A stretch of 49,252 bases of DNA from a virus (taxonomy: Duplodnaviria > Caudoviricetes): positions 1-49,252 of IMG/VR virus record IMGVR_UViG_3300020414_002994, one strand, 5' to 3'. A model generated the notes under the pieces. It saw only the letters and a list, made by a program, of their open reading frames with translations. It had not been told where the DNA came from and did not search any database. Made by a program: the position numbers and the translations under genes. This document shows, piece after piece, positions 27,270 to 49,252 of this stretch; the stretch's first letter is position 1, and each line of letters begins with the position of its first letter.

Positions 27270-28154
27270 ATGAAAATATCAAAACATCAACTTTATAAGA
27301 TTGTAAATCAATATCTAAACGAAGAAAAAAAACCAGTTGAGCAATCATACCCGGAAGAATTAGATCGATTAGTAAAAGTTTTTTCTGAAAATTCCGCTAG
27401 CCGACATGAAATAGTAGACGCAGCATATGATGCAGGTATTTTAGAAGGCGAAGCAATCAGCATAATTGACAGTTTAGAATATTACCTAAATAGCGGGAAA
27501 AATGCACCAACAGATAAAAAAAATCTAGAGATTGCAAAAGATTTAATTAGATACATGTGCAGAATATATGATGTCCCTGAAGATAGAAAATATCAAATTA
27601 TGAGCGCTTGGGAAAATTTTGGGCGCCACATCGTAAACCCGGCTTCACCTTTTGTAGCTGTCACACTACCATTTGGTATAATTGGAGTTAGTTTTTACAT
27701 GTTTTTAGCATTTGAGGCTGCCTGGGTTACAAATAGAGACTTATATTATAAACTCGCGGAATTTGATAAACATCTAATGCATATTTTAACATTAGGAGCA
27801 ACTTCCAATTTCGCTGAAAGTTTTTTAAGTCTTTGCAAACAAAATGCAGATAAATTAATTTTATATTCAACGCAAATGTACATTAAGCCTACGTCCCCAT
27901 TGAAAAAATCTTTCACCCACAAAAATGTAGTCTATAATCTGGACGGTAAAGAATCATCTATAACCGAAGCCAAAAATAATCTTAAAAGTGTAATTTATGA
28001 TATCAGTTTTGAATCAGCAAAGAAAACAATTATTAAGACAGCCAAAGATGTTCTATCCCAAGACCCAGGAGCATTACATAAAAAAGAAAGAGAATCAATT
28101 GAAAAAAGTGGCGGGACAACGGCAGCTAAATTTAATGTATTGGATAACTTGTAG
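27270..28154 (+). CDS. Hypothetical protein with shared N-terminal helix motif and one hydrophobic segment, 294 aa
   Basis: GAGGT RBS. N-terminus MKISKHQLYKIVNQYLNE. Hydrophobic stretch PFVAVTLPFGIIGVSFYMFLAF. Confidence 0.7.
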   Translation: MKISKHQLYKIVNQYLNEEKKPVEQSYPEELDRLVKVFSENSASRHEIVDAAYDAGILEGEAISIIDSLEYYLNSGKNAPTDKKNLEIAKDLIRYMCRIYDVPEDRKYQIMSAWENFGRHIVNPASPFVAVTLPFGIIGVSFYMFLAFEAAWVTNRDLYYKLAEFDKHLMHILTLGATSNFAESFLSLCKQNADKLILYSTQMYIKPTSPLKKSFTHKNVVYNLDGKESSITEAKNNLKSVIYDISFESAKKTIIKTAKDVLSQDPGALHKKERESIEKSGGTTAAKFNVLDNL

Positions 28155-28193: not shown

Positions 28194-28574
28194 ATGAAAA
28201 TTACAAGAAGACAATTAAGACGTTTAATAAACGAAGTAGTTGCAGGTGAAAGTGGAAATCGAACAGAATTTTCATCTGATGAGTGTGCCATGGCATTAGG
28301 CATCATAGACGATTATAGAGCAAATGCACTGGTCGTAGACTTACCACAAGACGGACTAGATTTCAAAGAAAAGCTAATTAACTGTGTTTTGACAAATAAA
28401 GGCTTAACACCCCAAGATCTGTCAGCAGAAGAAACACAAATGATGAATATGTGCTTAGACGATATTGGTAGCTCAAAACAAGACATGCTAGATTATGCTC
28501 ACCATGGTCGCAATATTGCAAAATATGGAACTGAGTCGGGGGAAAAATCGGCAATGCTCCTAAAACGAAAATAA
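28194..28574 (+). CDS. Hypothetical protein with shared N-terminal helix motif, 126 aa
   Basis: AGGAG RBS. N-terminus MKITRRQLRRLINE. Confidence 0.75.
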   Translation: MKITRRQLRRLINEVVAGESGNRTEFSSDECAMALGIIDDYRANALVVDLPQDGLDFKEKLINCVLTNKGLTPQDLSAEETQMMNMCLDDIGSSKQDMLDYAHHGRNIAKYGTESGEKSAMLLKRK

Positions 28575-28616: not shown

Positions 28617-29582
28617 ATGGAAATTGTTACAAAGCAGCAAAAAATTGATTTATTAGAGTCGGCCTTCGGCGAAAGTTTATTGTCAAACAGCGGAAAAAAT
28701 ATTTCTGTAGTATGTCCTGTATGTAAATCAAACAGCAGGAAGTCTAAAAAGAAAAAACTCTCAATCTGTCTGGACAAAGGTATATATCACTGCTGGGTCT
28801 GTGAAGCTAAGGGTAGAAACATAGCCAGTTTTGCAAACAAGTTTTCAAGTATTAGCAAGAATACTTTTACTGAATTGACCATTACTTTTAATTTAGAAGG
28901 ATTAGAGAACGAAATTAAAGAAGAAAAGGTAATTAAACTCCCTGATGACTTCTCTTTGCTGTGTTTTGACGATAGCAGACAAGCAAAGATCGCAAAGCGT
29001 TATCTGCACAAACGAGGTTGTACACCAGATGATTTAATTAAGTACAAAATAGGAATAAGTAACGATCCGGACTACATTAACAGAATTATAATTCCTTCAT
29101 TTTGCGAGAATATGAAGTTAAATTTTTTCTTATCACGCTCATATGATGAAAAAACGATTAGAAAGTATAAAAATTGCGATGCACAGAAAACAAAAATTAT
29201 ATTTAATGAGTATCTTATAGACTGGTCAATGCCTGTAACAGTAGTAGAAGGAGTTTTTGATGCAATTAAAGCAGGTGTCAATTCAATTCCTGTTTTAGGT
29301 AGTTGGATCGATGAAAACCACTACATTTTCCAAAAAATTGTACAAAATAAGACCCCTGTTGTACTTGGTATGGATCCGGATGCAATTGAAAAAACTATGA
29401 AAATAGCAAAAAATCTCGTTTCTTTCGGAAATGATGTAAAAATATGCAATCATACCGACACTGACTTCGGAGCAATGACAAAAGAAGAGGTAAAATATTA
29501 CATACAAAACGCCAAGAAATATGAATTATCTGATCGAATTACATATTTAATAAAGAATATTAGTTCAGGATCGATATTTTAG
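28617..29582 (+). CDS. DnaG-type DNA primase (Zn-binding domain + TOPRIM)
   Basis: 'CPVC...YHCWVC' Zn ribbon, 'RIIIPS', and TOPRIM motifs 'VVEGVFDA' and 'GMDPDA'. ATG 28617 preferred over GTG 28599. Confidence 0.88.
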   Translation: MEIVTKQQKIDLLESAFGESLLSNSGKNISVVCPVCKSNSRKSKKKKLSICLDKGIYHCWVCEAKGRNIASFANKFSSISKNTFTELTITFNLEGLENEIKEEKVIKLPDDFSLLCFDDSRQAKIAKRYLHKRGCTPDDLIKYKIGISNDPDYINRIIIPSFCENMKLNFFLSRSYDEKTIRKYKNCDAQKTKIIFNEYLIDWSMPVTVVEGVFDAIKAGVNSIPVLGSWIDENHYIFQKIVQNKTPVVLGMDPDAIEKTMKIAKNLVSFGNDVKICNHTDTDFGAMTKEEVKYYIQNAKKYELSDRITYLIKNISSGSIF

Positions 29583-29590
29583 GAGATATA

Positions 29591-30337
29591 ATGAGCAAAC
29601 TATCAAAAAGAATGATTAGGCGTTTAATTATGCAAGAAATGGCAAAAATGGTTGATGAAGATAAAATTATACCACACAGTGATGCACATCGTAAATTTGA
29701 CATTCCAAGCTCAGGAAGAAAAAATTCTGGTTACCCGGGTTCTATAGCCGGTGATTATGGTGGCGGTCAAGTAGGAACATGTGAGCAATGTGGTGGGATG
29801 TCATACGAAGGACAATGTCTGGAATGTGACACTTGTGGTTGTTCTGAAGGAAACTGCGCAGAAGGAGACTGTGGTACCATGGAAGAGGACATGATGTCCT
29901 TGAATGAGGGTAACTGCGGTTGCGGAGGCTCTGTTAACTACGATGATGACGGATCTGATTATTCAACAGATTCAATGCTGGCCAACCACCCGTTAGGTGA
30001 TTATAGTAATTTAAATAATACGAACATAACTCCAAACCAAGCATTTTCTGCAGGTTATGAAGTTTCTGATTTTGATGATGAAGTTTACGGACTAGGTGCC
30101 ACGTCAATGCATATAGACTTTCCTCGTCACGGTGAAGTCCACAAACATAAACATAATAATTACATGGCAAAACCCTCTCTTTACAAGGTTGCGAAATACT
30201 CACAAAAACTTTTACAAATGATTCCGGATGGTTATGAATTAGATGATTGGCAAAGAACAAAAATTGCCCAGATATCTGATGACATATCTGAAGTATATCA
30301 TTCTTTAGACTATGACTTTTATGACGATGAGTGTTAA
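29591..30337 (+). CDS. Hypothetical protein: shared N-terminal helix motif, Cys-rich segment, helical C-terminal domain, 248 aa
   Basis: AGGAG RBS. N-terminus MSKLSKRMIRRLIMQE. 10 Cys in 48 aa, a His cluster, and C-terminal 'LDDWQRTKIAQISDDISEVYHSLDY'. Confidence 0.75.
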   Translation: MSKLSKRMIRRLIMQEMAKMVDEDKIIPHSDAHRKFDIPSSGRKNSGYPGSIAGDYGGGQVGTCEQCGGMSYEGQCLECDTCGCSEGNCAEGDCGTMEEDMMSLNEGNCGCGGSVNYDDDGSDYSTDSMLANHPLGDYSNLNNTNITPNQAFSAGYEVSDFDDEVYGLGATSMHIDFPRHGEVHKHKHNNYMAKPSLYKVAKYSQKLLQMIPDGYELDDWQRTKIAQISDDISEVYHSLDYDFYDDEC

Positions 30338-31605
30338 TGAGATCTTTATTAAATCTATTTCCAGAAACAAGACAAGATATTGATAAAAATCACGCAGACA
30401 GAATGTCCAGAAGATATAGATATCTTCCTCATGACTGTGTTGATAGATTGCCAGTTTTGCAATATCCTGCAGAAAACACAGCTGAATTCATGTCTGACAT
30501 AAAAGAAGTAATTAGATGTCACAATCACCCATGCATGAATACAAAATTTCTTAAAAGTGCGGATAATTCTGTTGAAGATGTATTTAAAGATTTTTGCAAA
30601 GAAAACGGTTTCAACAACATAGACTGGAAAAAAATTAAAGATGCAATCCATGACGTCGATAGTATTGTTTTAAAACTAAAATACAAAAATGGAAGGCCTC
30701 GACCTATCCATTATTTACAAGATGTAGACGACAGCCTTGAAGTTAAGTACAAAAAATCACCTAGCTTCCCATCAGGCCATACAGCTATAGCTTATTTTAT
30801 ATGTGATATAGTTTCAAAAGCAATACCTGAGTTAAAACAAGACCTACAAACACTTGCTTCTTTGATAGGTCAATCAAGAATTGAAAATGCTGTGCACTAT
30901 CCAACAGATATTGAATATGGTAGACTGATAGGTGAAACTTTAGCTGATATATTCAACAATGAAAAATCGAGTAATATCGATAAACAACTCTCTAAAAAGC
31001 ATTATAAAAAATTTGGTGATAAACTCACGACAAAAAATAAGAACTATAAAGACACATGTCACGACTTAGCTTATTTCTTAAAAAGGACGTCAGAGATTGA
31101 AAATTTTCATGTCGACTATGACGAATGCTTCGAAGCGGCTAAATACCTTATGATGGGTGTACCACCGAAAAACATAACTAGTTGTCCACATATTAACTCA
31201 CAAATAGACGGTCTTGTGATGGCAAATAGGTTAGGAAGGATAGATAATAATCACAAGGTCTGCCATATACATAAATGTTTTAATAAAAACATATTAGAAA
31301 AGGGTGCACCTGGAGAGTTTAGAAATTTCTCTCATAGATCTCCATCCGGATGCCAGTATCCTGAACCATACGATCTTAATCAAAAACTAAGAAATAGTCA
31401 CCAACACCACAATCATCCATGGTTACGCCACGTTCTTTATGAATATGTGCATCCTTTTTGTGATGGAAACGGCAGATCCGGAAGAATAATACTGGCTTCA
31501 GATTGTGATTTTGATTTTGCAAGAGTCAATGATATGATTGGTGAAGATTATATAGATAATATAGTTGCTTATATGCTGCCTGATAAACTTAATAAACTTT
31601 TGTAA
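30337..31605 (+). CDS. PAP2/haloperoxidase-superfamily phosphatase fused to a Fic (AMPylase-family) domain
   Basis: PAP2 motifs K-x6-RP (KYKNGRPRP), PSGH and SR-x5-H-x3-D (SRIENAVHYPTD). Fic motif HPFCDGNGRSGR, upstream 'IHK...PGEFR', and inhibitory-type TSEIEN. ATG 30337 overlaps the upstream TAA (TAATG). Confidence 0.88.
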   Translation: MRSLLNLFPETRQDIDKNHADRMSRRYRYLPHDCVDRLPVLQYPAENTAEFMSDIKEVIRCHNHPCMNTKFLKSADNSVEDVFKDFCKENGFNNIDWKKIKDAIHDVDSIVLKLKYKNGRPRPIHYLQDVDDSLEVKYKKSPSFPSGHTAIAYFICDIVSKAIPELKQDLQTLASLIGQSRIENAVHYPTDIEYGRLIGETLADIFNNEKSSNIDKQLSKKHYKKFGDKLTTKNKNYKDTCHDLAYFLKRTSEIENFHVDYDECFEAAKYLMMGVPPKNITSCPHINSQIDGLVMANRLGRIDNNHKVCHIHKCFNKNILEKGAPGEFRNFSHRSPSGCQYPEPYDLNQKLRNSHQHHNHPWLRHVLYEYVHPFCDGNGRSGRIILASDCDFDFARVNDMIGEDYIDNIVAYMLPDKLNKLL

Positions 31606-31608
31606 AAG

Positions 31609-31636
31609 TGTAACTGCACATACTACCATATATAAT
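31609..31636 (+). promoter_or_regulatory. Cassette promoter 1 (TGTAAC-N16-TATAAT)
   Basis: AAAAG TGTAAC tgcacatactaccata TATAAT, then CAACC (31646) and an AGGAGG RBS. Confidence 0.75.
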
Positions 31637-31666
31637 AGTATTGTCCAACCAATTTAGGAGGTAGTT

Positions 31667-32185
31667 TTGGCAAAGTTAAATAGACAACAGTTAAATGCTA
31701 TAAAAGAAAAAGTTCGCCAACAAAAAGCTGAAGCAGCACAACAAAAGCAGATTGAAGAGCTTAAGCTTAAAGAAAGCGGCAATACACAAGATCAAGAAGA
31801 TACAACACCAAAGACTTTGAAGGATGTTAAAGCTCTTTTAGAAAAACAAAAGCAAGAAGCAGCACAGTCAGGTCAACCTCACCAAACTCAAAAGCAAAAG
31901 CTTAAAAAGATTAAAAAAGAAGTAAAAGGTAAGATACCAAAAACCAGGCGTCGACAGATGAAATGGAGCTGTGGTATCGGAGACTTAGTTATACTTCCTG
32001 GTCGCCTTTACGGTGCAAGTGAAGACCTATACGGCATAATTGTTAAAGAGTCAATTGATAATCGTGGAATTCCCGATTATACCGGTTCAAGAGTAGTTAC
32101 AGATAACACGCAATATCAAATACTTACCACCGGTGGATTTAGATGGATATATGCCAAAGGTCTTAAGAAAATTGAAGTTGACTAA
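31667..32185 (+). CDS. Hypothetical protein, K/Q-rich helical N-terminus and possible SH3/KOW-like C-terminus, 172 aa
   Basis: TTG start with AGGAGG RBS and its own promoter. 'GIGDLVIL...YGIIVK' resembles small SH3-like barrels (tentative). Confidence 0.7.
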   Translation: MAKLNRQQLNAIKEKVRQQKAEAAQQKQIEELKLKESGNTQDQEDTTPKTLKDVKALLEKQKQEAAQSGQPHQTQKQKLKKIKKEVKGKIPKTRRRQMKWSCGIGDLVILPGRLYGASEDLYGIIVKESIDNRGIPDYTGSRVVTDNTQYQILTTGGFRWIYAKGLKKIEVD

Positions 32186-32730: not shown

Positions 32731-33795
32731 ATGGATATCAAAACCTTCGTAAAAGTAGTATCAAACCTTCCACCAGAAATTTCAGTATTAGTAAAAGGAC
32801 CAACCGGTATTGGTAAATCACATATCTTTCACCAGATTGGTAAAGAAATCGGACTAGAAGTATTGGATCGCCGCCTTTCATATATGACTGAAGGTGACCT
32901 TATTGGCCTTCCAGAATTGGTCGATGGCACAACAAGATTTGCACCAGTTAACTGGTTTATTGAAGCTTGTAATGAACCACGTGTTTTATTCTTCGATGAG
33001 CTTAACCGTGCAACCTTAGAAGTGCAACAATGTGCTTTCCAAATTGTATTGGACCGCGAGCTTAACGGTCACAAGCTTCATCCAGAAACTCGTGTCTATG
33101 CAGCAGTTAATGAAGGTAGTGACTACCAAGTTACTGAAATGGACCCTGCTCTTCTTCGTCGTTTCTGGTCTATTGACTTAGAACCAACAACTGAAGATTG
33201 GTTAGAATGGGCAGAAACCATTGGTAATATTGATCCACTCACTATTGATTTTATTAAGAAGTACCCTGCTCGACTTCGTCATACAGGTACATTCGAACCA
33301 GGCACAGTGTACCCAAATCCTGCATCATGGGCTCGTTTTGACAAGGCACTCAAACATGCAAATCTAGACCCATCTAACAAGTGTGGTGATGATTATGACA
33401 GTCTTATCTTCTCTATTGGTTTGGGGTTTATTGGCGAAGCTGGTACAATTGCATTTAGTGACTATGTCCAAAACCATGCTCAAAAATTTGGTGCAAAGGA
33501 CTTGCTTAATCGATATCATGACGGCAAGAACGGCGTAAAGTCTAAAATAGATAAGTTGACAAATGACAAAAAGAATGACCTTTTAAGTGTCACAATTACC
33601 TATCTAAAAAATAATGATGTGACAATCCCGCAAGCAAAAAGAGCTTCTGGCTTCATTGACAGTTGTTCAGATGAAATGCTAGTTAATTTTATGAACTTAC
33701 TAATGGAAACAAAACACCTTGACAATATTAAAAAATTCCACAAGTTTCTTGGTAGTAAGGTTGTTAAAGTTGTTAATGCAGCAAATAATGTCTAA
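32731..33795 (+). CDS. MoxR-like (AAA_5-type) AAA+ ATPase
   Basis: Walker A GPTGIGKS, 'GDLIGLP', Walker B VLFFDELNRA, sensor-1 'AAVN', Arg finger 'MDPALLRRF'. Confidence 0.9.
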   Translation: MDIKTFVKVVSNLPPEISVLVKGPTGIGKSHIFHQIGKEIGLEVLDRRLSYMTEGDLIGLPELVDGTTRFAPVNWFIEACNEPRVLFFDELNRATLEVQQCAFQIVLDRELNGHKLHPETRVYAAVNEGSDYQVTEMDPALLRRFWSIDLEPTTEDWLEWAETIGNIDPLTIDFIKKYPARLRHTGTFEPGTVYPNPASWARFDKALKHANLDPSNKCGDDYDSLIFSIGLGFIGEAGTIAFSDYVQNHAQKFGAKDLLNRYHDGKNGVKSKIDKLTNDKKNDLLSVTITYLKNNDVTIPQAKRASGFIDSCSDEMLVNFMNLLMETKHLDNIKKFHKFLGSKVVKVVNAANNV

Positions 33796-33797
33796 AA

Positions 33798-33825
33798 TGT
33801 AACCTAGGCCAAAGTATTATATAAT
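33798..33825 (+). promoter_or_regulatory. Cassette promoter 4 (TGTAAC-N16-TATAAT)
   Basis: AAAA TGTAAC ctaggccaaagtatta TATAAT, then CAACC (33831) and AGGAGGT. Confidence 0.75.
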
Positions 33826-33847
33826 ATAAACAACCACAGGAGGTTAT

Positions 33848-35182
33848 ATGATAGAAATAGCTGATACACAAACAAAAGAAGAATTAACTGATGAAAGATT
33901 TAAGAAGATTATGCTTAAGTTCTTGTTGAACGAGCCATTCTTTTCAGATATCATGAGTCATATTCGACGCCAAAAAACCTATGCCATTCCAACAGCTGGT
34001 GTTTCATGTGCTGGTGGTGATTTTACCCTACACTGGAACCCAGACTTTGTTGGTAAATTAACTACAAAAAAGGTATTTGGGTTACTCAAACATGAGTGTT
34101 ACCACCTTATATACCAGCACGTTTCCGGTAGAAAGCAAAACCCACACCTTATGTGGAATATTGCAACCGACTTAGCCATCAATTCCACAATACCACTTGA
34201 TGAATTACCAGAAGGTGGTTTAGTTCCCGGGCAAGCAACAAAATTTCCAGCTGATTACACACCATCACCTTCTCAAGTTAAAATGAGTGATTTTATCAAA
34301 TCAATGCCGCTTAATAAGTCATCTGAATGGTATATGGAAAGAATCATGAATGATGAAGAAATACAAGAAGCTATTCAAGAAGCAATGGGGTCCGGAGAGG
34401 GTGAAGGATCTTGTGAGAATGGTTTTGGTGAAGGGAGCGGAAACGGAAGCGGTGACTGCAAACCATCAGCTGGTAACGGTAGACCTGGCCAGGGTTTTGA
34501 TCATCACTTTGATGAAGAATTATCTGATGCTGAAAAAGCCATGGCTGATGCTAAAATCAAAGAAATAGTCAAAAAAGCAGCTAAAAGAGCTTCGAAAAAC
34601 CGTTCTTGGGGTTCAGTTGGTGCTAGCATGCAAGGTGAAATACAGGCAATGTTCTCAGATGAAATTGACTGGCGCAACGTATTAAGGTACTTCTGTGGTT
34701 CTAAACAAAAAGCAAATCGATCTAGAACCTTTAAACGAATCAACAAGAAGTACCCATACATTCACCCTGGTCGAAAAACAAGCTATACATCAAATATTGC
34801 TGTTTATATCGATCAGTCTGGTTCCGTTGGTGATCATGAACTGCAACTACTGTTCAATACTCTTAATGAACTGGCAAAGCGTGTAACATTTACCATCTAT
34901 CACTTCGATACATCAGTTGATGAAGCTAGCGAGTTTGTTTGGAAAAAGAACAAAACCGTTCGTAAGGCATATCGCACTCGAGGTGGAGGCACATGTTTTA
35001 ATTGTGTTGAGGATCACTTTAGGAAGAATATTGCTAAATATGACGGCTATATTATTATGACTGATGGATATGCACCTAAACCAAAACCTTGTAAATCTAA
35101 AAGATGTTGGGTTATAATACCAGGGTGCGAACCACAATTTCAAGTTGACAAAAAAGATACCAAAGTGGTAATGAAAGAATAA
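33848..35182 (+). CDS. Zincin-like metallopeptidase + vWA domain protein (DUF2201-like)
   Basis: HExxH 'LKHECYHLIYQH', 'WNIATDLAIN', Gly-rich linker, MIDAS 'IDQSGSV', 'GGGT' and 'IMTDG'. Confidence 0.88.
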   Translation: MIEIADTQTKEELTDERFKKIMLKFLLNEPFFSDIMSHIRRQKTYAIPTAGVSCAGGDFTLHWNPDFVGKLTTKKVFGLLKHECYHLIYQHVSGRKQNPHLMWNIATDLAINSTIPLDELPEGGLVPGQATKFPADYTPSPSQVKMSDFIKSMPLNKSSEWYMERIMNDEEIQEAIQEAMGSGEGEGSCENGFGEGSGNGSGDCKPSAGNGRPGQGFDHHFDEELSDAEKAMADAKIKEIVKKAAKRASKNRSWGSVGASMQGEIQAMFSDEIDWRNVLRYFCGSKQKANRSRTFKRINKKYPYIHPGRKTSYTSNIAVYIDQSGSVGDHELQLLFNTLNELAKRVTFTIYHFDTSVDEASEFVWKKNKTVRKAYRTRGGGTCFNCVEDHFRKNIAKYDGYIIMTDGYAPKPKPCKSKRCWVIIPGCEPQFQVDKKDTKVVMKE

Positions 35183-35192
35183 GGACTCCAAT

Positions 35193-38100
35193 ATGAAAAT
35201 ACTTCACATAGCTGATATCCACTGGCGAGGCTTGTCTCGCCATCAAGAATACGTTTTAGCCTTCAAAGACCTATTTAGGCAAGCTGAAGAGCTGCAACCT
35301 GATATTATCTATGTAGGTGGTGATATTGTACATTCTAAGACCCAAGGTATATCCCCAGAGTTAATACAAAACTTGTGCTGGTGGTTTAATGGCCTAGCTA
35401 AAATAGCACCAACACATGTCATTCTCGGGAACCACGACGGCCTTATACTTAATAGAGACAGACAAGATGCAATTACACCCATAATTGAGGCATTAGACAA
35501 CCCTAGGATACACCTGTACAAAAAGTCAGGTACTTATGAGTTTGCTCCAGGGTTTGAATGGTGTGTGTTATCTTGTTTTGATGAAGAAAACTTCTTTAAA
35601 GCTAAACCTACCAAAGACAATATTAGTATCGCTTTGTATCATGGTGCTGTAAGAGGTAGTCTCACCGATGTGGACTGGCAGCTTGAAGGCGAGTCCACAT
35701 TGGATCTCTTTAAATCATATGACTTTGCAATGTTAGGTGATATTCATAAGCGACAATTCTTAAATAAGAAAGAAACGATAGCCTATAGTGGATCGACAAT
35801 TCAGCAGAATTTTGGTGAAGACAACGAAAAAGGCTTTTTGTTGTGGGACATTAAGGACGCTGATACTTTTACATGTCAATTTTATCCTGTTGAAAACAGA
35901 TATCACTTTGTAACTGTTGACTGGCAAGGTACTGTACAAAGAACTTACAATAAATGCAAAGAATACCCTAATCTTTCTAGATTTAGAATACGTGCTGACA
36001 ATTATATTAGTCAGGCAGATGCAAGAAGACTCCAAAAAATATTGACAAAACAAAAAGCAGCTTCAGAAGTTGTATTTAAGGTCGAGTCTAAATTTGATTC
36101 TGACACGATACAGACGAGATCAGGTAAGACGATGTCTATCGATTTAAGGAGTCCTGATAAACATAAAGAACTGATTAGGGAGTACTACAAAAGCAATAAT
36201 CTAACTGACGCTGATCTATCTAAACTAGATGACCTGGTTGATAGAAGCCTTTCTGAAATAGCACAATCTGACAGAGATCTTAGGAATGTTAGATGGTCCA
36301 TAAACAGTCTAAAATTTGACAACTGTTTTTCTTACAAAGACGGTAATTACATCAATTTTGAGAACATGCCGGGCATTACAGGTATTTTTGGTAGAAACGC
36401 TAGGGGTAAATCTTCGATCATTGGTACTATTGCATATGCTCTCTTTAACACGTCTGATAGAGGTGCTATAAAGAATATTCATCTAATTAATACCAGAAAA
36501 AATCACTGCAAGGCAGAATTAGATATCTCCATTAATAATGTTCCGTACCGAATTATTAGGCAGACAGTTAAAAAGCAGACAAAAAAGAATGTTTGGGCAC
36601 CAACAACCCTTAAGTTCTACCGACTTGATAAGAGCGGTGATGTAATTGAAGACTTAACTGAAGAACAAAGACGAGAAACTGAAAAGATCATTAGGGGTAT
36701 GATTGGATCATCTGAAGAATTCTTAATGACTTCTTTATCTTCGCAAGGCGATATGAACAACTTTATCAAAGAAAAAGCCTCAGCTAGAAAAGCAATCCTA
36801 GCTAATTTTCTAGACTTGACCGTATTCGACGGAATGAATGAATTTTCAAAGAAAGAATCAGCTGCGCTCAAACAACAAGCTCAGACCTTAAACAAAGGTG
36901 ACTGGAATAAGCAGATAAATATCAAAGCTGCTTCTATTAAAAACATTGAAGCGTTGATATCTGAGGAAGAATCAAAACTGACATTACTTAAAGAAGACTA
37001 TGAGGCGTATGTAAAAGATTTACACTCAAACGTTAAACATGACTACATAACACAATTACAAGTATCAGTTGCACAGTCAAAGTGGAAGAACAGTCTGAAG
37101 TCTTTAGAAGATATAACACTGACAAGAGATAAACTTAAAGATGAAATATTTGAAACAGATCAAAAAATATCAAAAGTAGACTTGTTTTTAAGTAATATTA
37201 ATCCTGATGAAATTAGAGAAAAAAGAGACGCACAAAAAGAGATTGAAAACCTTTTATCTTCGATGCAAAGTGACCTTAAGTACGAGAGAAAAGAGCTTTC
37301 TTTTATTGAAAAGTCTGTAGAAAAACTTAAAGAAGTACCTTGCGGTGATCAGTTTCCTAAATGTAAGTTTATAAAAGAGTCCCATTCAAATAAAAGAAAA
37401 CTAGAAAAACAGCGAGATAAGGTGACAGCGCTTAAGGTAAAAGTTGACGATCTAAAATCTGCATTTCGAAAGCTTGGAAGAAAAAATTACAGCGAAGAAT
37501 TGGACAAATACAACGCAATTCTCCAAAGAAAATCAGAATTGGTGACATCAATATCTTCTATTAAAATTAAAATTAAAGGCCATGAAAAAGATATCGACAA
37601 TTTAAAGCCAAAAATTACTAGCTTGGAAAAAGAGTATTTAGACTTAAAAGAAAGATTTGACAATCAAGATACAGACGACGCTCATACCTTGATTGAAAGA
37701 AGGATTAAACAAACAAACGAGCTAATTGAAAGTTCAGACAATAATAGAACTAGTCTTATTACAAAGCTAGCAAAAGAAAAAGCTGAAAAAAGCGTTTTGA
37801 CAAAACAGAAAAGAGAGTATGAAAAAATTAGCAAGTCTTTAAGAATATATGATCTTTTTTCACAAGCGACTTCAAATAAAGGCATACCGGTACAAATTAT
37901 ACATGCCATGTTGCCACAGATAAACGCAGAGATATCTAAAATTCTTAAAGGGGTTGTCGGGTTTACAGTTGATTTAGAAGCAGACTTAGATAGTAATACA
38001 ATGGATATATTTATTAACTATGGGGACAGCAAGCGTATAATTGAACTAGGATCAGGAATGGAAAAAATGATGGCATCTTTAGCTATACGAGTCGCATTAA

Positions 38101-38324
38101 TTAATGTATCATCTCTCCCTAAGACAAATATGTTAATGATTGATGAAGGATTTGGTGCGCTGGATGAAACAAACTTAGAAGCATGCGGAAAACTACTGCA
38201 GTCACTTAAGAAGTGGTTTAAGAATATTATTGTTATATCACATATTGATGAAATTAAAGACATTGTCGACAATAATATTGACATTTTAAGAAAAGGAGTC
38301 GACTCATATGTCTACCAGCCGTAA
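35193..38324 (+). CDS. Fused Mre11/SbcD nuclease - Rad50/SbcC ATPase (T4 gp47-gp46 equivalent), 1043 aa
   Basis: Metallophosphoesterase motifs 'ADIH', 'GGDIVH', 'GNHD' and 'LGDIH'. Then Walker A 'GRNARGKSS', Q-loop 'SQG', coiled coil, signature 'GSGMEK', Walker B/D-loop 'MIDEGFGALD' and H-loop 'ISH'. Confidence 0.92.
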   Translation: MKILHIADIHWRGLSRHQEYVLAFKDLFRQAEELQPDIIYVGGDIVHSKTQGISPELIQNLCWWFNGLAKIAPTHVILGNHDGLILNRDRQDAITPIIEALDNPRIHLYKKSGTYEFAPGFEWCVLSCFDEENFFKAKPTKDNISIALYHGAVRGSLTDVDWQLEGESTLDLFKSYDFAMLGDIHKRQFLNKKETIAYSGSTIQQNFGEDNEKGFLLWDIKDADTFTCQFYPVENRYHFVTVDWQGTVQRTYNKCKEYPNLSRFRIRADNYISQADARRLQKILTKQKAASEVVFKVESKFDSDTIQTRSGKTMSIDLRSPDKHKELIREYYKSNNLTDADLSKLDDLVDRSLSEIAQSDRDLRNVRWSINSLKFDNCFSYKDGNYINFENMPGITGIFGRNARGKSSIIGTIAYALFNTSDRGAIKNIHLINTRKNHCKAELDISINNVPYRIIRQTVKKQTKKNVWAPTTLKFYRLDKSGDVIEDLTEEQRRETEKIIRGMIGSSEEFLMTSLSSQGDMNNFIKEKASARKAILANFLDLTVFDGMNEFSKKESAALKQQAQTLNKGDWNKQINIKAASIKNIEALISEEESKLTLLKEDYEAYVKDLHSNVKHDYITQLQVSVAQSKWKNSLKSLEDITLTRDKLKDEIFETDQKISKVDLFLSNINPDEIREKRDAQKEIENLLSSMQSDLKYERKELSFIEKSVEKLKEVPCGDQFPKCKFIKESHSNKRKLEKQRDKVTALKVKVDDLKSAFRKLGRKNYSEELDKYNAILQRKSELVTSISSIKIKIKGHEKDIDNLKPKITSLEKEYLDLKERFDNQDTDDAHTLIERRIKQTNELIESSDNNRTSLITKLAKEKAEKSVLTKQKREYEKISKSLRIYDLFSQATSNKGIPVQIIHAMLPQINAEISKILKGVVGFTVDLEADLDSNTMDIFINYGDSKRIIELGSGMEKMMASLAIRVALINVSSLPKTNMLMIDEGFGALDETNLEACGKLLQSLKKWFKNIIVISHIDEIKDIVDNNIDILRKGVDSYVYQP

Positions 38325-43399: not shown

Positions 43400-44005
43400 A
43401 TGCCTGTAGATCAACTTAGCGTATTGAGAGAATGGACACCCATTCAGTGTTCAAAACAAATGATTAAAGAGTCACGAGAAAAATACGGCGGAAAAATTAT
43501 GCTATCCGGTATCATTCAAAGAGCAGACACATTAAATCAGAATGGTAGAGTTTACCCTAGAGCAATATTAGAGCGAGAAATAATGAATTATCAAAAATTA
43601 ATTCAAGAAAACAGAGCTCTAGGTGAGTGTGATCATCCTGATTCTTCTGTTATTGAACTTAAAAATGCATCCCATATTGTTAGAGAAGCTTATATGCAGG
43701 GCAACGACGTATACGGAAGAATAGAAATATTAGACACGCCTAGCGGTAAAATTATTCAGTCGTTGATAGAGAGCGGTGTAACTTTAGGAATTAGTTCACG
43801 AGGTGTAGGTTCAACTGTTGCCAAGGGTGGAAATCAATATGTGCAAGAAGATTTTCAGTTAATATGCTTTGATATGGTATCTGAACCTAGTACACCTGGA
43901 GCTTTTATGTTAAAAGAACATCGTGTTTTAAGAAAAGATTTGGACAAATTTTTTAACCAGACAGATAAAATAGATAGAATGTTTAACGACATATTGAGGT
44001 GGTGA
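43400..44005 (+). CDS. Prohead core protease (T4 gp21-like)
   Basis: 'NQNGRVYP', catalytic-type 'LGECDHP', 'SHIV', 'TPSGKI', 'GISSRGVGS' and 'FDMVSEPS'. Confidence 0.95.
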   Translation: MPVDQLSVLREWTPIQCSKQMIKESREKYGGKIMLSGIIQRADTLNQNGRVYPRAILEREIMNYQKLIQENRALGECDHPDSSVIELKNASHIVREAYMQGNDVYGRIEILDTPSGKIIQSLIESGVTLGISSRGVGSTVAKGGNQYVQEDFQLICFDMVSEPSTPGAFMLKEHRVLRKDLDKFFNQTDKIDRMFNDILRW

Positions 44006-44535
44006 TGAACAAAAAATTAAAAAGTAGAAACGTGATAAAAAGTCTTGTAAAAGAATGCTTGATAGAAATCTTGGCAGAAGGCCTGATCGGTAATAAACAG
44101 GCAACTGTTAGCGAAGCTAGAGAAATGAAAGGATCTTTGTACGAAGCAAACGAACGCTTAATAAAAGAAGAAAGAATTGACATGAATTCATCCACAGCAA
44201 AATCTCAACAATCATCTTCTAGAAGAAAATCTTACTTAGACAGTATCACAACAGGTGTTGACAAGGTGCGTAAAGAAAACGTTGCTAGTAACGCAATCAA
44301 AGAAAGAGTGAGTAGTTTAACAGACGACCCTATCATGGCAAACATTTTTGAAGATACAGCGATGACAACTCTGGTGGAGCAAAAACAAAACGGTAGGTCA
44401 ACGGGCCCTTCTGTATCCACGCAAGGAGATAAGGCAGCTAAGGTGGTTGATCAGTCACTCCCTGAGGATCTTTTTGGAGAATCAGCATCAAAATGGGCAA
44501 ATCTCGCTTTTGCGCCATCAATTAGAAAAAGTTAG
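44005..44535 (+). CDS. Hypothetical head-module protein
   Basis: TGATG overlap with the protease stop and a GAGGTG RBS. N-terminal helix 'IKSLVKECLIEILAEG'. Confidence 0.75.
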   Translation: MNKKLKSRNVIKSLVKECLIEILAEGLIGNKQATVSEAREMKGSLYEANERLIKEERIDMNSSTAKSQQSSSRRKSYLDSITTGVDKVRKENVASNAIKERVSSLTDDPIMANIFEDTAMTTLVEQKQNGRSTGPSVSTQGDKAAKVVDQSLPEDLFGESASKWANLAFAPSIRKS

Positions 44536-44582: not shown

Positions 44583-44819
44583 TTGAGAAATGTAAAGAAA
44601 CTTACGCCTGATATTATTAAGCAGATAATAGCAGAAGAAAAAGAAAACGTTAAAGAATTTTTAACAAAAAAAATGTTGAAGGAAAATACTAAGCTTTTAA
44701 ACCAGTTAAGACTTTTAAAGAAGGTCAATAGTATTACGCCAAAAAGCCTTAAAGAAGAAAAAGATTTAAATACTCTTAAATTAAAATTAATTAAAAATAT
44801 TAAGAAAGGAAAGAAGTAA
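44583..44819 (+). CDS. Small basic helical protein with shared N-terminal motif, 78 aa
   Basis: TTG start with GGAGG RBS. Sequence 'KKLTPDIIKQIIAEE'. Its stop overlaps the next start. Confidence 0.7.
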   Translation: MRNVKKLTPDIIKQIIAEEKENVKEFLTKKMLKENTKLLNQLRLLKKVNSITPKSLKEEKDLNTLKLKLIKNIKKGKK

Positions 44820-47495: not shown

Positions 47496-49252
47496 ATGAG
47501 TCGTACATTTACTTTAAATAACTTAACAGAAGGAATTCGCGATCGTCACGTCGGTCAAGAAGCCTCTCGTATTCAAGAAAAGTGGACCCGCACAGGTCTT
47601 CTTCGTGGCCTTGAAGGTCATAACCGTGAGAACATGGCACGCTTAATGGAAAACCAAGCAGCCCAAGTTCTTCGCGAAGCAAACACATTGGGCACTGCTG
47701 GCAGTGACGCTGGCCGCGTTGATGGATTTTCAAACATCGCTTTCCCAATCGTTCGTCGTGTATTCGGTGGTTTGGTTGCTAATGAATTAGTATCTATTCA
47801 ACCTATGTCTCTTCCAAGTGGACTTTTGTTCTACTTAGATTACACTTACGGATCTGATGTTGGTGGTGATGCCACTGCTTCTAATAACTCTTTATCAGCA
47901 ACTGGTGGATCAACTTACAAGCAAGGTCAATCTATTTACAACAACCCAGCCGGTGCAAGCGTTAGAACTGGTTCAGATGCTACTGGTGGTCAATACGACC
48001 TTGTAGGAACTTCTTACTCTAAAGTTCACTCTAACAAAGCATTCGCTTCAACTGGTGACGCATTGAATGGTGCTATGGGTACAGCTGCTACTCAAACTTT
48101 TACTGCTGCAGCTAACTTAGGTACAGCTGGTGCCGATGGTAAATTACTCCAATTCGACCCACAGATCACTAAGGAAATTGATGACGGTACTAACACCTAT
48201 CAGGTTCTTTTCATCTCTGCATCACTATTACAAGACAGTGCTAATAGAAGAGTAGATCCTACGTTGATTAAAGAAGTAGCACTCTATTCAGAAAATGGAG
48301 TTGCCGGTAACGGTCCAGGTAATTTAGGTACATTAACTGTTCCTGGCGCTGCTATTCAAGGTGGTAATAATATTTGGAACGTCAGACGTCTTAACGAATT
48401 AGGTACTCTGGTTCACGATTCCGCAGGTACAGTTTTTACTCCAGATCCATTTGCAAACGTTGCATCAGCCGGTACTGTTATTAAGACAATTGTTCAGGGT
48501 ACAGCTTCAACAATGGTGGGTATTAGTACTGCATTGAACCTGTCAGCATCTTTCCCAGTTTCTGACGCATTGGTTGAGACTGGTGACACTGATACCGGTT
48601 CTGTTTTGGTAGTTCCTTCATTTGAATCAGACTTTGGAACTACTCCAACACCAGTAATTCCTGAGATCGACATCAAGATCGAGTCTATCGCTGTTACAGC
48701 TACAACTCGTAAGTTAAGAGCTCGCTGGTCTCCAGAACTCGCTCAAGACTTAAATGCTTACCACTCAATGGATGCTGAAGTTGAATTAACTCAAATCCTT
48801 TCTGAGCAAATTGCATTGGAAATCGATCGTGAAATTCTTAATGACCTCTTGGTTCAAGCAAAAGGTGCTAACTTCTTCTGGTCACGTGCTCCTGGTAAGT
48901 TTGTGAACAAGAGAACTGGTGCACACGTATCTGCTACACTTGGTCCTGTATTTACTGGTACAGTTCGTGAATGGTATGAGACTCTTGTTGAAACCATTAT
49001 CGATGTTGCTAATGAGATTCACAGAAAGACTCTTCGTGGTTCTGCTAACTTTATCGTGGTTTCACCTGAAGTTGCAACAATCTTCGAAGCTTCTGTACTT
49101 TACAAGCCTTCTATCAAGATTGATGGTCAAGGTCAAGCAGCATTCTCTGGTATTGGTGCTGAGGCTATCGGATCTCTCTCTAACAGATTTACTGTTTACA
49201 AAGATCCTTACTTCCCACGCAACAAGATCCTTGTAGGATACAAAGGTGGTTC
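47496..49252 (+). CDS. Major capsid protein (T4 gp23-like), 3'-partial; missing from the ORF track
   Basis: AGGAG RBS and ATG 47496. My translation reads MSRTFTLNNLTEG...LMENQA...FPIVRRVFGGLVANELVSIQPMSLPSGLLFYLDY...IPEIDIKIESIAVTATTRKLRARWSPELAQDLNAYHSMDAEVELTQILSEQIALEIDREI...KDPYFPRNKILVGYKG, with no stop before the window end. Confidence 0.96.
   Translation, partial: MSRTFTLNNLTEGIRDRHVGQEASRIQEKWTRTGLLRGLEGHNRENMARLMENQAAQVLREANTLGTAGSDAGRVDGFSNIAFPIVRRVFGGLVANELVSIQPMSLPSGLLFYLDYTYGSDVGGDATASNNSLSATGGSTYKQGQSIYNNPAGASVRTGSDATGGQYDLVGTSYSKVHSNKAFASTGDALNGAMGTAATQTFTAAANLGTAGADGKLLQFDPQITKEIDDGTNTYQVLFISASLLQDSANRRVDPTLIKEVALYSENGVAGNGPGNLGTLTVPGAAIQGGNNIWNVRRLNELGTLVHDSAGTVFTPDPFANVASAGTVIKTIVQGTASTMVGISTALNLSASFPVSDALVETGDTDTGSVLVVPSFESDFGTTPTPVIPEIDIKIESIAVTATTRKLRARWSPELAQDLNAYHSMDAEVELTQILSEQIALEIDREILNDLLVQAKGANFFWSRAPGKFVNKRTGAHVSATLGPVFTGTVREWYETLVETIIDVANEIHRKTLRGSANFIVVSPEVATIFEASVLYKPSIKIDGQGQAAFSGIGAEAIGSLSNRFTVYKDPYFPRNKILVGYKGG

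Follow-up and report, generated by a model that had tools for sequence, protein, structure and literature searches.

A PAP2 phosphatase fused to a Fic domain in a clade of large marine phages

A gene encoding a PAP2 phosphatase joined to a Fic domain was found to be a stable, orthologous and virus-restricted gene of one clade of large, uncultured marine phages. The architecture is real and conserved, is built of two known enzymes and is apparently undescribed. It was analyzed in a stretch of 49,252 nucleotides (hereafter the window) from the record IMGVR_UViG_3300020414_002994, which is a virus record about 20% complete; the features discussed below are listed in Table 1. The family set comprised 262 proteins (the 120 examined among 196 homologues, plus 142 more distant proteins), at least 130 of which were full-length PAP2-Fic fusions. 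In all 24 fused IMG/VR loci, corresponding to about 20 distinct ones, and in L248, the primase is followed by one gene, the fusion, and then a MoxR/vWA or SbcCD block. Since the gene order is the same at all fused loci, we regard the fusion as a stable orthologous gene of a single clade.

The window encodes a Gp23 capsid protein, a Gp20 portal, an S77 protease (43400-44005), a terminase, baseplate proteins and a fused SbcCD gene, and was thus assigned to a large T4-like phage. It is best represented in sequencing runs of marine metagenomes, and related records reach 202 kb (70% complete) and 237 kb (77% complete). The closest GenBank matches of the terminase (Flavobacterium and Microcystis phages) were only 42-43% identical, too distant to assign a host. 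The first-pass annotation had considered the fusion a phage gene, and this is upheld; it has a fixed place two genes after the primase in T4-like phages. With regard to phage catalogues, the fusion is carried by 25 IMG/VR contigs and by no GenBank phage, where we retrieved seven weak PAP2-only matches, none covering 80%. Two PAP2+Fic clusters (54 and 156 members) were found in the ESM Atlas, viral in every member with a taxon record. A scan of 30 of the 64 GTDB parts detected no cellular fusion, and the best 80 of 454 matches there were essentially to the PAP2 half only. A scan of 1 of 64 metagenome parts returned generic Fic proteins among the 80 matches listed, and a single-protein scan of viral contigs gave 14 pattern matches and no relatives. 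Other features of the window were also recorded: a chain of 1043 aa at positions 35193-38324 that unites an Mre11-like nuclease with a Rad50-like ATPase and is conserved in the clade; a pair formed by a MoxR-type AAA ATPase and a DUF2201 metallopeptidase-vWA protein, preceded by early-type promoter motifs (32731-35182) and absent from L175, L179, L180, L182 and L183; and a Gp23-type capsid protein with a large insertion (47496-49250; about 650 aa in relatives).

All motifs that the first-pass annotation had located were recovered at the same positions of the ORF, and by their residues both active sites are intact, as it had judged. Both domains passed the curated Pfam cut-offs (PAP2, residues 112-203, E 8.8e-14; Fic, residues 307-386, E 3.9e-6), and the AlphaFold2 model of the fusion had a pLDDT of 93 and a pTM of 0.88. 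The earlier impression that the protein lacks a transmembrane segment was borne out by hydropathy, since no membrane or signal segment was evident in the fusion (maximum over 19 residues, 0.96) and 1.6 was exceeded in none of 130 family members. We also considered whether the join could be an assembly artefact. One contig (X4) covers positions 30694-31929 with 0 differences and a second one (X10), from another study and year, covers positions 30217-31280 with 19 differences; each crosses the domain junction in one piece. Because contigs of two independent runs bridge the junction, the fusion is not a chimera, and a chimeric join or lost stop codon is ruled out by these assemblies together with 130 full-length homologues. 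Among the X10 variants listed, 22 of the 27 inside the ORF were synonymous. The contigs of an RNA run (X16) over the fusion gene were few and of low depth and could be DNA, so they were not taken as evidence of expression. A by-eye likeness of the inter-domain linker to a fossil tag or cleavage site was not supported, as a profile made from five tags did not single out the linker; an L/I-x-E site is not conserved there either (43 of 130 linkers versus a 44% background).

Table 1. Features of the PAP2-Fic fusion gene and its surroundings (positions in the window)
Feature	Position	Strand	Basis or remark
ATATTTA late-promoter-like motif (putative function)	29543..29549	+	within primase 3' end, upstream of two-gene unit
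Upstream tagged gene, 248 aa	29591..30337	+	stop overlaps fusion start; likely co-transcribed
PAP2-Fic fusion gene, 422 aa	30337..31605	+	start codon ATG 30337
N-terminal peptide, residues 1-11, candidate capsid-targeting and prohead-protease site	30337..30369	+	family pattern
Class A acid-phosphatase-like PAP2 domain, soluble, residues 38-207	30448..30957	+	structure match and motifs
PAP2 motif 1, K115-x6-R122-P123	30679-30705
PAP2 motif 2, PSGH, residues 145-148	30769-30780
PAP2 motif 3, S180-R181-x5-H187-x3-D191	30874-30909
Inter-domain linker with basic helix, residues 208-236	30958..31044	+	AlphaFold2 model
Class II Fic domain, residues 237-422	31045..31602	+	structure and profile matches
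Inhibitory helix motif T251-x3-E255 (TSEIEN, residues 251-256)	31087..31104	+	aligns with CdFic S31/E35 and FICD motif
Fic signature HPFxDGNGRxxR, residues 372-383	31450..31485	+	intact in 118/130
GTGTAA-N-TATAAT sigma70-like (early-type) promoter motif	31610..31636	+	just past fusion; marks next unit

The N-terminal half carries the motifs KX6RP, PSGH and SRX5HX3D of the PAP2 superfamily, and none of the 130 fusions has lost any of the ten catalytic-motif residues; KX6RP-PSGH-SRX5HX3D is also the motif described for class A acid phosphatases in passages of PMC12356135. The predicted model of this half aligned with the class A acid phosphatases 8yc1 and 1eoi at a VIA-align Z of 19.7 (rmsd 2.4-2.8, 185-192 residues aligned), and enzymes of this class filled the top 13 rows of the structure ranking (Z 17-19.7) and also matched in size. 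Bacterial vanadium haloperoxidases scored lower (Z 16.1), membrane PAP2 enzymes likewise ranked behind the phosphatases, and the Foldseek and sequence matches were phosphatases. The modelled fold points to a class A acid phosphatase more than to a haloperoxidase, so that of the PAP2/haloperoxidase identity first proposed the three motifs stand and the fold favours the phosphatase side. A vanadium-dependent haloperoxidase in place of a phosphatase would share these motifs, aligns at a Z of about 16 and would suit the marine source, yet the higher scores, the better size match and the phosphatase-only matches make it very improbable. The NCBIfam PhoC equivalog scored below its cut-off (27.1 bits versus 430). 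Class A non-specific acid phosphatases are exported enzymes with a signal peptide; none was found in the fusion N-terminus, where the hydropathy maximum is -0.98.

By published definitions, and on the basis of both motifs and model, the C-terminal half is classified as an auto-inhibited class II Fic. These definitions, in passages of PMC3667792, consist of an HxFx(D/E)GNGRxxR signature and an N-terminal (S/T)xxxE(G/N) inhibitory helix, and the assignment follows because the fusion has both, its signature reading HPFCDGNGRSGR. The predicted model of this half aligned with CdFic (4x2d; Z 15.2, rmsd 3.5, 180 residues aligned) and also with FICD. A profile of the half matched CdFic at E 2.3e-12 and placed T/S251 and E255 on S31 and E35 of CdFic and on the inhibitory motif of FICD, which upholds the first-pass reading of a class II Fic with an inhibitory Glu. 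The more exact claim that TSEIEN is an (S/T)xxxE(G/N) motif held in part: T/S251 (107/112) and E255 (106/112) are conserved, N256 is found in only 25 of 112. This Glu is described as required for deAMPylation in FICD (in passages of PMC8097203) and in Fic-1-AntF (PMC13327609). Models of the defence protein SoFic did not fit the domain in full, as the PADLOC match covered profile positions 63-208 of 361 only and the NCBIfam score of 19.6 bits was below the cut-off of 550. Five fusions (P0060, P0065, P0069, P0073 and P0032) have an intact Fic signature and no inhibitory Glu, and may be uninhibited enzymes or a step towards decay.

The two active sites have decayed unequally. The Fic signature is intact in 118 of 130 full-length fusions and the PAP2 residues in all 130; homologues are not always separate genes, and degenerate motifs, another sign that the first-pass annotation had named against the fusion, were found in the Fic half of 12 of 130. 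Glu255 was retained in 113 of the 118 Fic-intact members versus 3 of the 12 Fic-dead ones. In the distant set, 12 of the 25 full-length representatives of 50% clusters were Fic-dead by hand count, a sample enriched in fast-evolving dead forms. A quick tree was built from the PAP2 half (74 fusion rows without near-copies plus 7 stand-alone PAP2; 37 of 78 branches open), and on it the Fic-dead state required 6 changes, 4 of them forced by starred branches. These changes were read as losses, since the Fic site is intact both in stand-alone Fic relatives and in the fusions that branch deepest. Judged from motif residues on this tree, Fic catalysis has been lost independently at least four times. 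Five of the Fic-dead genes sit at the same primase-side locus.

The first-pass annotation had proposed that the two enzymes may form one device which adds and removes a mark or clears PPi. In such a coupled reaction, the phosphatase would serve the Fic by clearing PPi or released AMP or by reversing the mark. Both sites are intact in 118 of 130 fusions, and the arrangement of the domains was predicted with a pTM of 0.88 in the fusion under study versus 0.64 in a Fic-dead orthologue, from one model each. A part of the Fic also aligned at the C-terminal segment of class A phosphatases (to residue ~310), an alignment that did not recur in a further comparison. Set against this, every one of the 12 Fic-dead members has a fully conserved PAP2, which argues that the phosphatase is independent of Fic catalysis, and each domain is also found alone or with unrelated partners in related viruses. 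Moreover, histidine phosphatases act on monoesters, whereas an AMPylated protein carries a phosphodiester. Coupling is accordingly weakened by the 12 Fic-dead fusions, the at least four changes and the PAP2 site kept in 130 of 130, and we consider it unlikely. As the Fic site decayed repeatedly and the phosphatase never did, obligate coupling of the two enzymes seems unlikely, and this pattern of residues indicates that they probably act independently.

What the Fic half contributes can be judged from both kinds of member. H372, R380, R383, E255, H333, Y341 and Y405 are 85-100% conserved in Fic-intact members and jointly lost in dead ones; since these are the catalytic, inhibitory and flap residues, Fic catalysis seems to be under selection in most lineages. 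The dead domains keep their core residues and a length of 148-187 residues, a Fic-dead orthologue was still modelled as a Fic fold (pLDDT 93, Z about 13), and the Fic-dead pair L174/L178 shows purifying selection (pN 0.075 versus pS 0.52). As far as sequences and model go, the Fic fold keeps some value even when catalytically dead. The retained length, core, fold and selection would also fit a Fic that acts mainly as a non-catalytic adaptor or stabiliser placing the phosphatase on its target, with AMP transfer secondary. That role is quite doubtful, because most members are intact and conserve the catalytic, inhibitory and flap residues, and the dead forms have lost them jointly, so that a target dock is not what the latter keep.

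Related viruses also encode each domain by itself or joined to other partners. The fusion-partner scan covered 5 Fic and 24 PAP2 long relatives and one short protein. One PAP2 relative (P0168) is fused to a portal, two others to Nudix and one to a tagged HD domain (P0210; RelA/SpoT-like Pfam HD_4, below cut-off); P0205, P0223, P0247 and P0165 have between them Nudix + PAP2, topoisomerase IB + PAP2, and a poly(A)-polymerase/CCA head + Fic. Among Fic relatives without PAP2, stand-alone or otherwise fused, 11 of 19 start with the tag pattern described below, and a WxxILK tag of another virus group heads 35 of the 52 viral PAP2 ORFs that stand alone. This second tag was found in 226 of 744 ORFs of those loci versus 26 of 6693 background windows. 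Across L186-L237 roughly one plus-strand ORF in three starts with it, among them most of the stand-alone PAP2 genes located close to terminase and portal; in the loci viewed, terminase and portal themselves were without it. A P0160-like protein (L253:3042-6074) combines a leucine-rich-variant repeat with Fic and lies between the prohead protease and scaffold/capsid genes. A search for shorter (split) forms gave 59 matches, the close ones mostly on short contigs; P0148 consists of the N-terminal peptide and Fic only, and both P0148 and P0144 are each on a single contig of about 1 kb.

The fusion starts with a short peptide of conserved design. Positions 4, 7 and 8 are hydrophobic in 122/122, 121/122 and 122/122 family rows with an N-terminus, Glu10 is present in 77 of 122, and Phe is found at 8-9 in 115 of 122; the distance from Met1 is fixed and an indel-rich spacer follows. 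A strict tag pattern matched 76 of 130 fusion N-termini versus 6.7% of internal windows. In the T4 capsid-targeting sequence, targeting depends on residues 4 and 7 and processing on residues 8 and 10 (passages of PMC9026906), and gp21 cleaves after L/I-x-E (passages of PMC9026906 and PMC3012670). The spacing of the fusion decapeptide (4, 7, 8, 10) equals these key positions. In the window, L/I-x-E reaches its highest density in the ORFs of the scaffold, the head module and the protease, and a generic tag pattern is found in 8 of 36 ORFs. In 4 of 5 records the exact N-terminal form of the fusion turned up a single time per genome, always in the fusion itself. It is not the common tag of these phages, which is of the MKITRRQLR type and gave 6-17 DNA-level matches per related record (control, 0). 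A tag of the MKITRRQLRRLINE type was seen on unrelated genes of the window (27270-28154, 28194-28574, 29591-30337, 44005-44535 and 44583-44819) and, in arrays, in the related records G001-G004. In G002, association of the tag with late promoters was not significant (p = 0.23), and among 27 tag-bearing proteins of the 29 analyzed with Pfam only an L,D-transpeptidase passed a cut-off. The same record encodes a chaperonin (L322:12627-14225), a sigma70 factor (L322:15213-15959) and the tagged L,D-transpeptidase-like protein (L323:6837-7826).

The transcription context was also analyzed. The A of the fusion start codon is the last base of the TAA stop of the upstream gene, and across loci the fusion start overlaps or closely trails this stop. 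ATATTTA was found at most 70 nt before a start in 4 cases versus 0.82 expected (actual spacing, 27-48 nt), in front of a structural-block gene, the gene upstream of the fusion, a head-module gene and the scaffold; the motif was chosen after viewing the sequences, and the late class rests on these four genes. Tyr-Leu codons of the primase spell TATTTA in 21 of 24 loci versus 0.26 expected from codon use, these loci being related and the silent sites between those compared largely saturated. GTGTAA-N-TATAAT follows the fusion in 21 of 24 loci. Given ATATTTA upstream, the gene overlap and GTGTAA-N-TATAAT behind, the fusion is likely the last gene of a putative late unit. In the upstream gene itself, a tag is followed by a variable middle part, where CxxCG pairs and repeated hydrophobic-x-EG motifs occur, and then by a C-terminal domain that is conserved; the gene had no Pfam, PHROG, NCBIfam or PADLOC match. 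Three loci are without TATTTA, and in two of them, L172 and L177, this gene is shortened to 77-79 aa.

The late-like motif, the decapeptide and the tagged, portal-fused and head-module relatives suggest, by analogy with T4, that the fusion protein may be virion cargo; the first-pass annotation had mentioned neither the late setting nor the N-terminus that resembles a capsid-targeting sequence. Our preferred reading, held tentatively and with slightly less than even confidence, is that of a late-made, head-packed and injected fusion with a phosphatase core and an accessory, independent Fic. Transcription would start from the ATATTTA motif together with the upstream tagged gene, the protein would be loaded into the prohead via its N-terminal peptide and trimmed after Glu10 by the phage S77 protease, and both domains would stay in one chain. 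After injection, the phosphatase would hydrolyse soluble phosphomonoesters, most likely of nucleotide type, as hinted by the Nudix and HD partners of PAP2 relatives, and might possibly destroy a nucleotide signal, as the first-pass annotation had suggested. A host protein would gain or lose AMP through the Fic whenever the Glu255 helix permits; where that target is not needed, its catalytic residues would decay and the fold be kept.

On the other hand, the gene adjoins the primase region, outside the head module, which counts against packaging. The protein could instead be an unpackaged late or middle cytoplasmic enzyme for phosphate scavenging, nucleotide pools or assembly control, its peptide being a structural helix. 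The uniqueness of the N-terminal form to the fusion gene in each genome, the helical state of residues 4-7 in the fusion model and the non-significant association in G002 would all agree with this. However, the peptide is of low confidence in two models (pLDDT 67 and 48), lies at a fixed distance from Met1 before the indel-rich spacer, and also heads the Fic-only P0148 (on one short contig), and relatives of both domains repeatedly come with tags or head-module links. An unpackaged enzyme is for these reasons well short of even odds, though the likeliest of the alternatives, and we retain the injected phosphatase-Fic protein as the working interpretation.

Known injected activities include ADP-ribosylation by T4 Alt and nuclease inhibition by IPI. 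If the fusion is packaged, AMP transfer or removal and a broad phosphatase would join them. A more specific role, to which we assign a low likelihood, is that an injected Glu255 Fic deAMPylase reverses host Fic-type abortive-infection toxins such as SoFic and the phosphatase destroys nucleotide signals or released AMP; SoFic defence acts by AMPylation during infection, according to passages of PMC12249575. If true, it would be the first anti-defence deAMPylase of a phage, and its retention or loss would follow the host arsenal. The protein is soluble and well modelled, and some of its natural orthologues have a dead Fic or lack the inhibitory Glu, so that what a class II Fic does during phage infection can be tested directly. 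It should also be considered that both folds are well known and that their pairing seems to be just one cargo fusion among many.

In agreement with the first-pass annotation, to which no description of this architecture was known, the literature searched (most subscription papers fall outside it) contained no report of a PAP2-Fic fusion or of a virion-borne phage Fic. The words Fic, PAP2 and phosphatase are absent from the main text of PMC5512222 as available, and PAP2 from that of PMC7824862, PMC4454073 and PMC11706807. The phage polyvalent proteins described in PMC5512222 (Iyer et al. 2017) likewise have several enzyme domains per chain and a proposed injection, and the portal fusions among the relatives add to this likeness; here, in contrast, a fixed two-domain form occupies a fixed locus. 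With T4 IPI-III and Alt, the fusion shares T4-type head genes (Gp23, Gp20, S77 protease) and a 10-residue peptide with the same key positions, and with Alt also an enzyme as likely cargo, but the enzymes differ and no sequence homology was shown. The PAP2 half has the fold (Z 19.7), the motif triplet and the all-helical soluble body of the class A phosphatases PhoN and PhoC, from which it differs in its identity of about 20%, the lack of a signal or membrane segment, the fusion to Fic and its viral origin. Likewise, the Fic half shares the signature, the inhibitory helix with aligned Glu, the flap region and the fold (Z 15.2) with CdFic, FICD/HYPE and SoFic. Unlike them, it is compact, without TPR or the SoFic C-terminal domain, has a variable G/N after the Glu, and is phosphatase-fused, phage-encoded and, by its residues, catalytically dead in several lineages.
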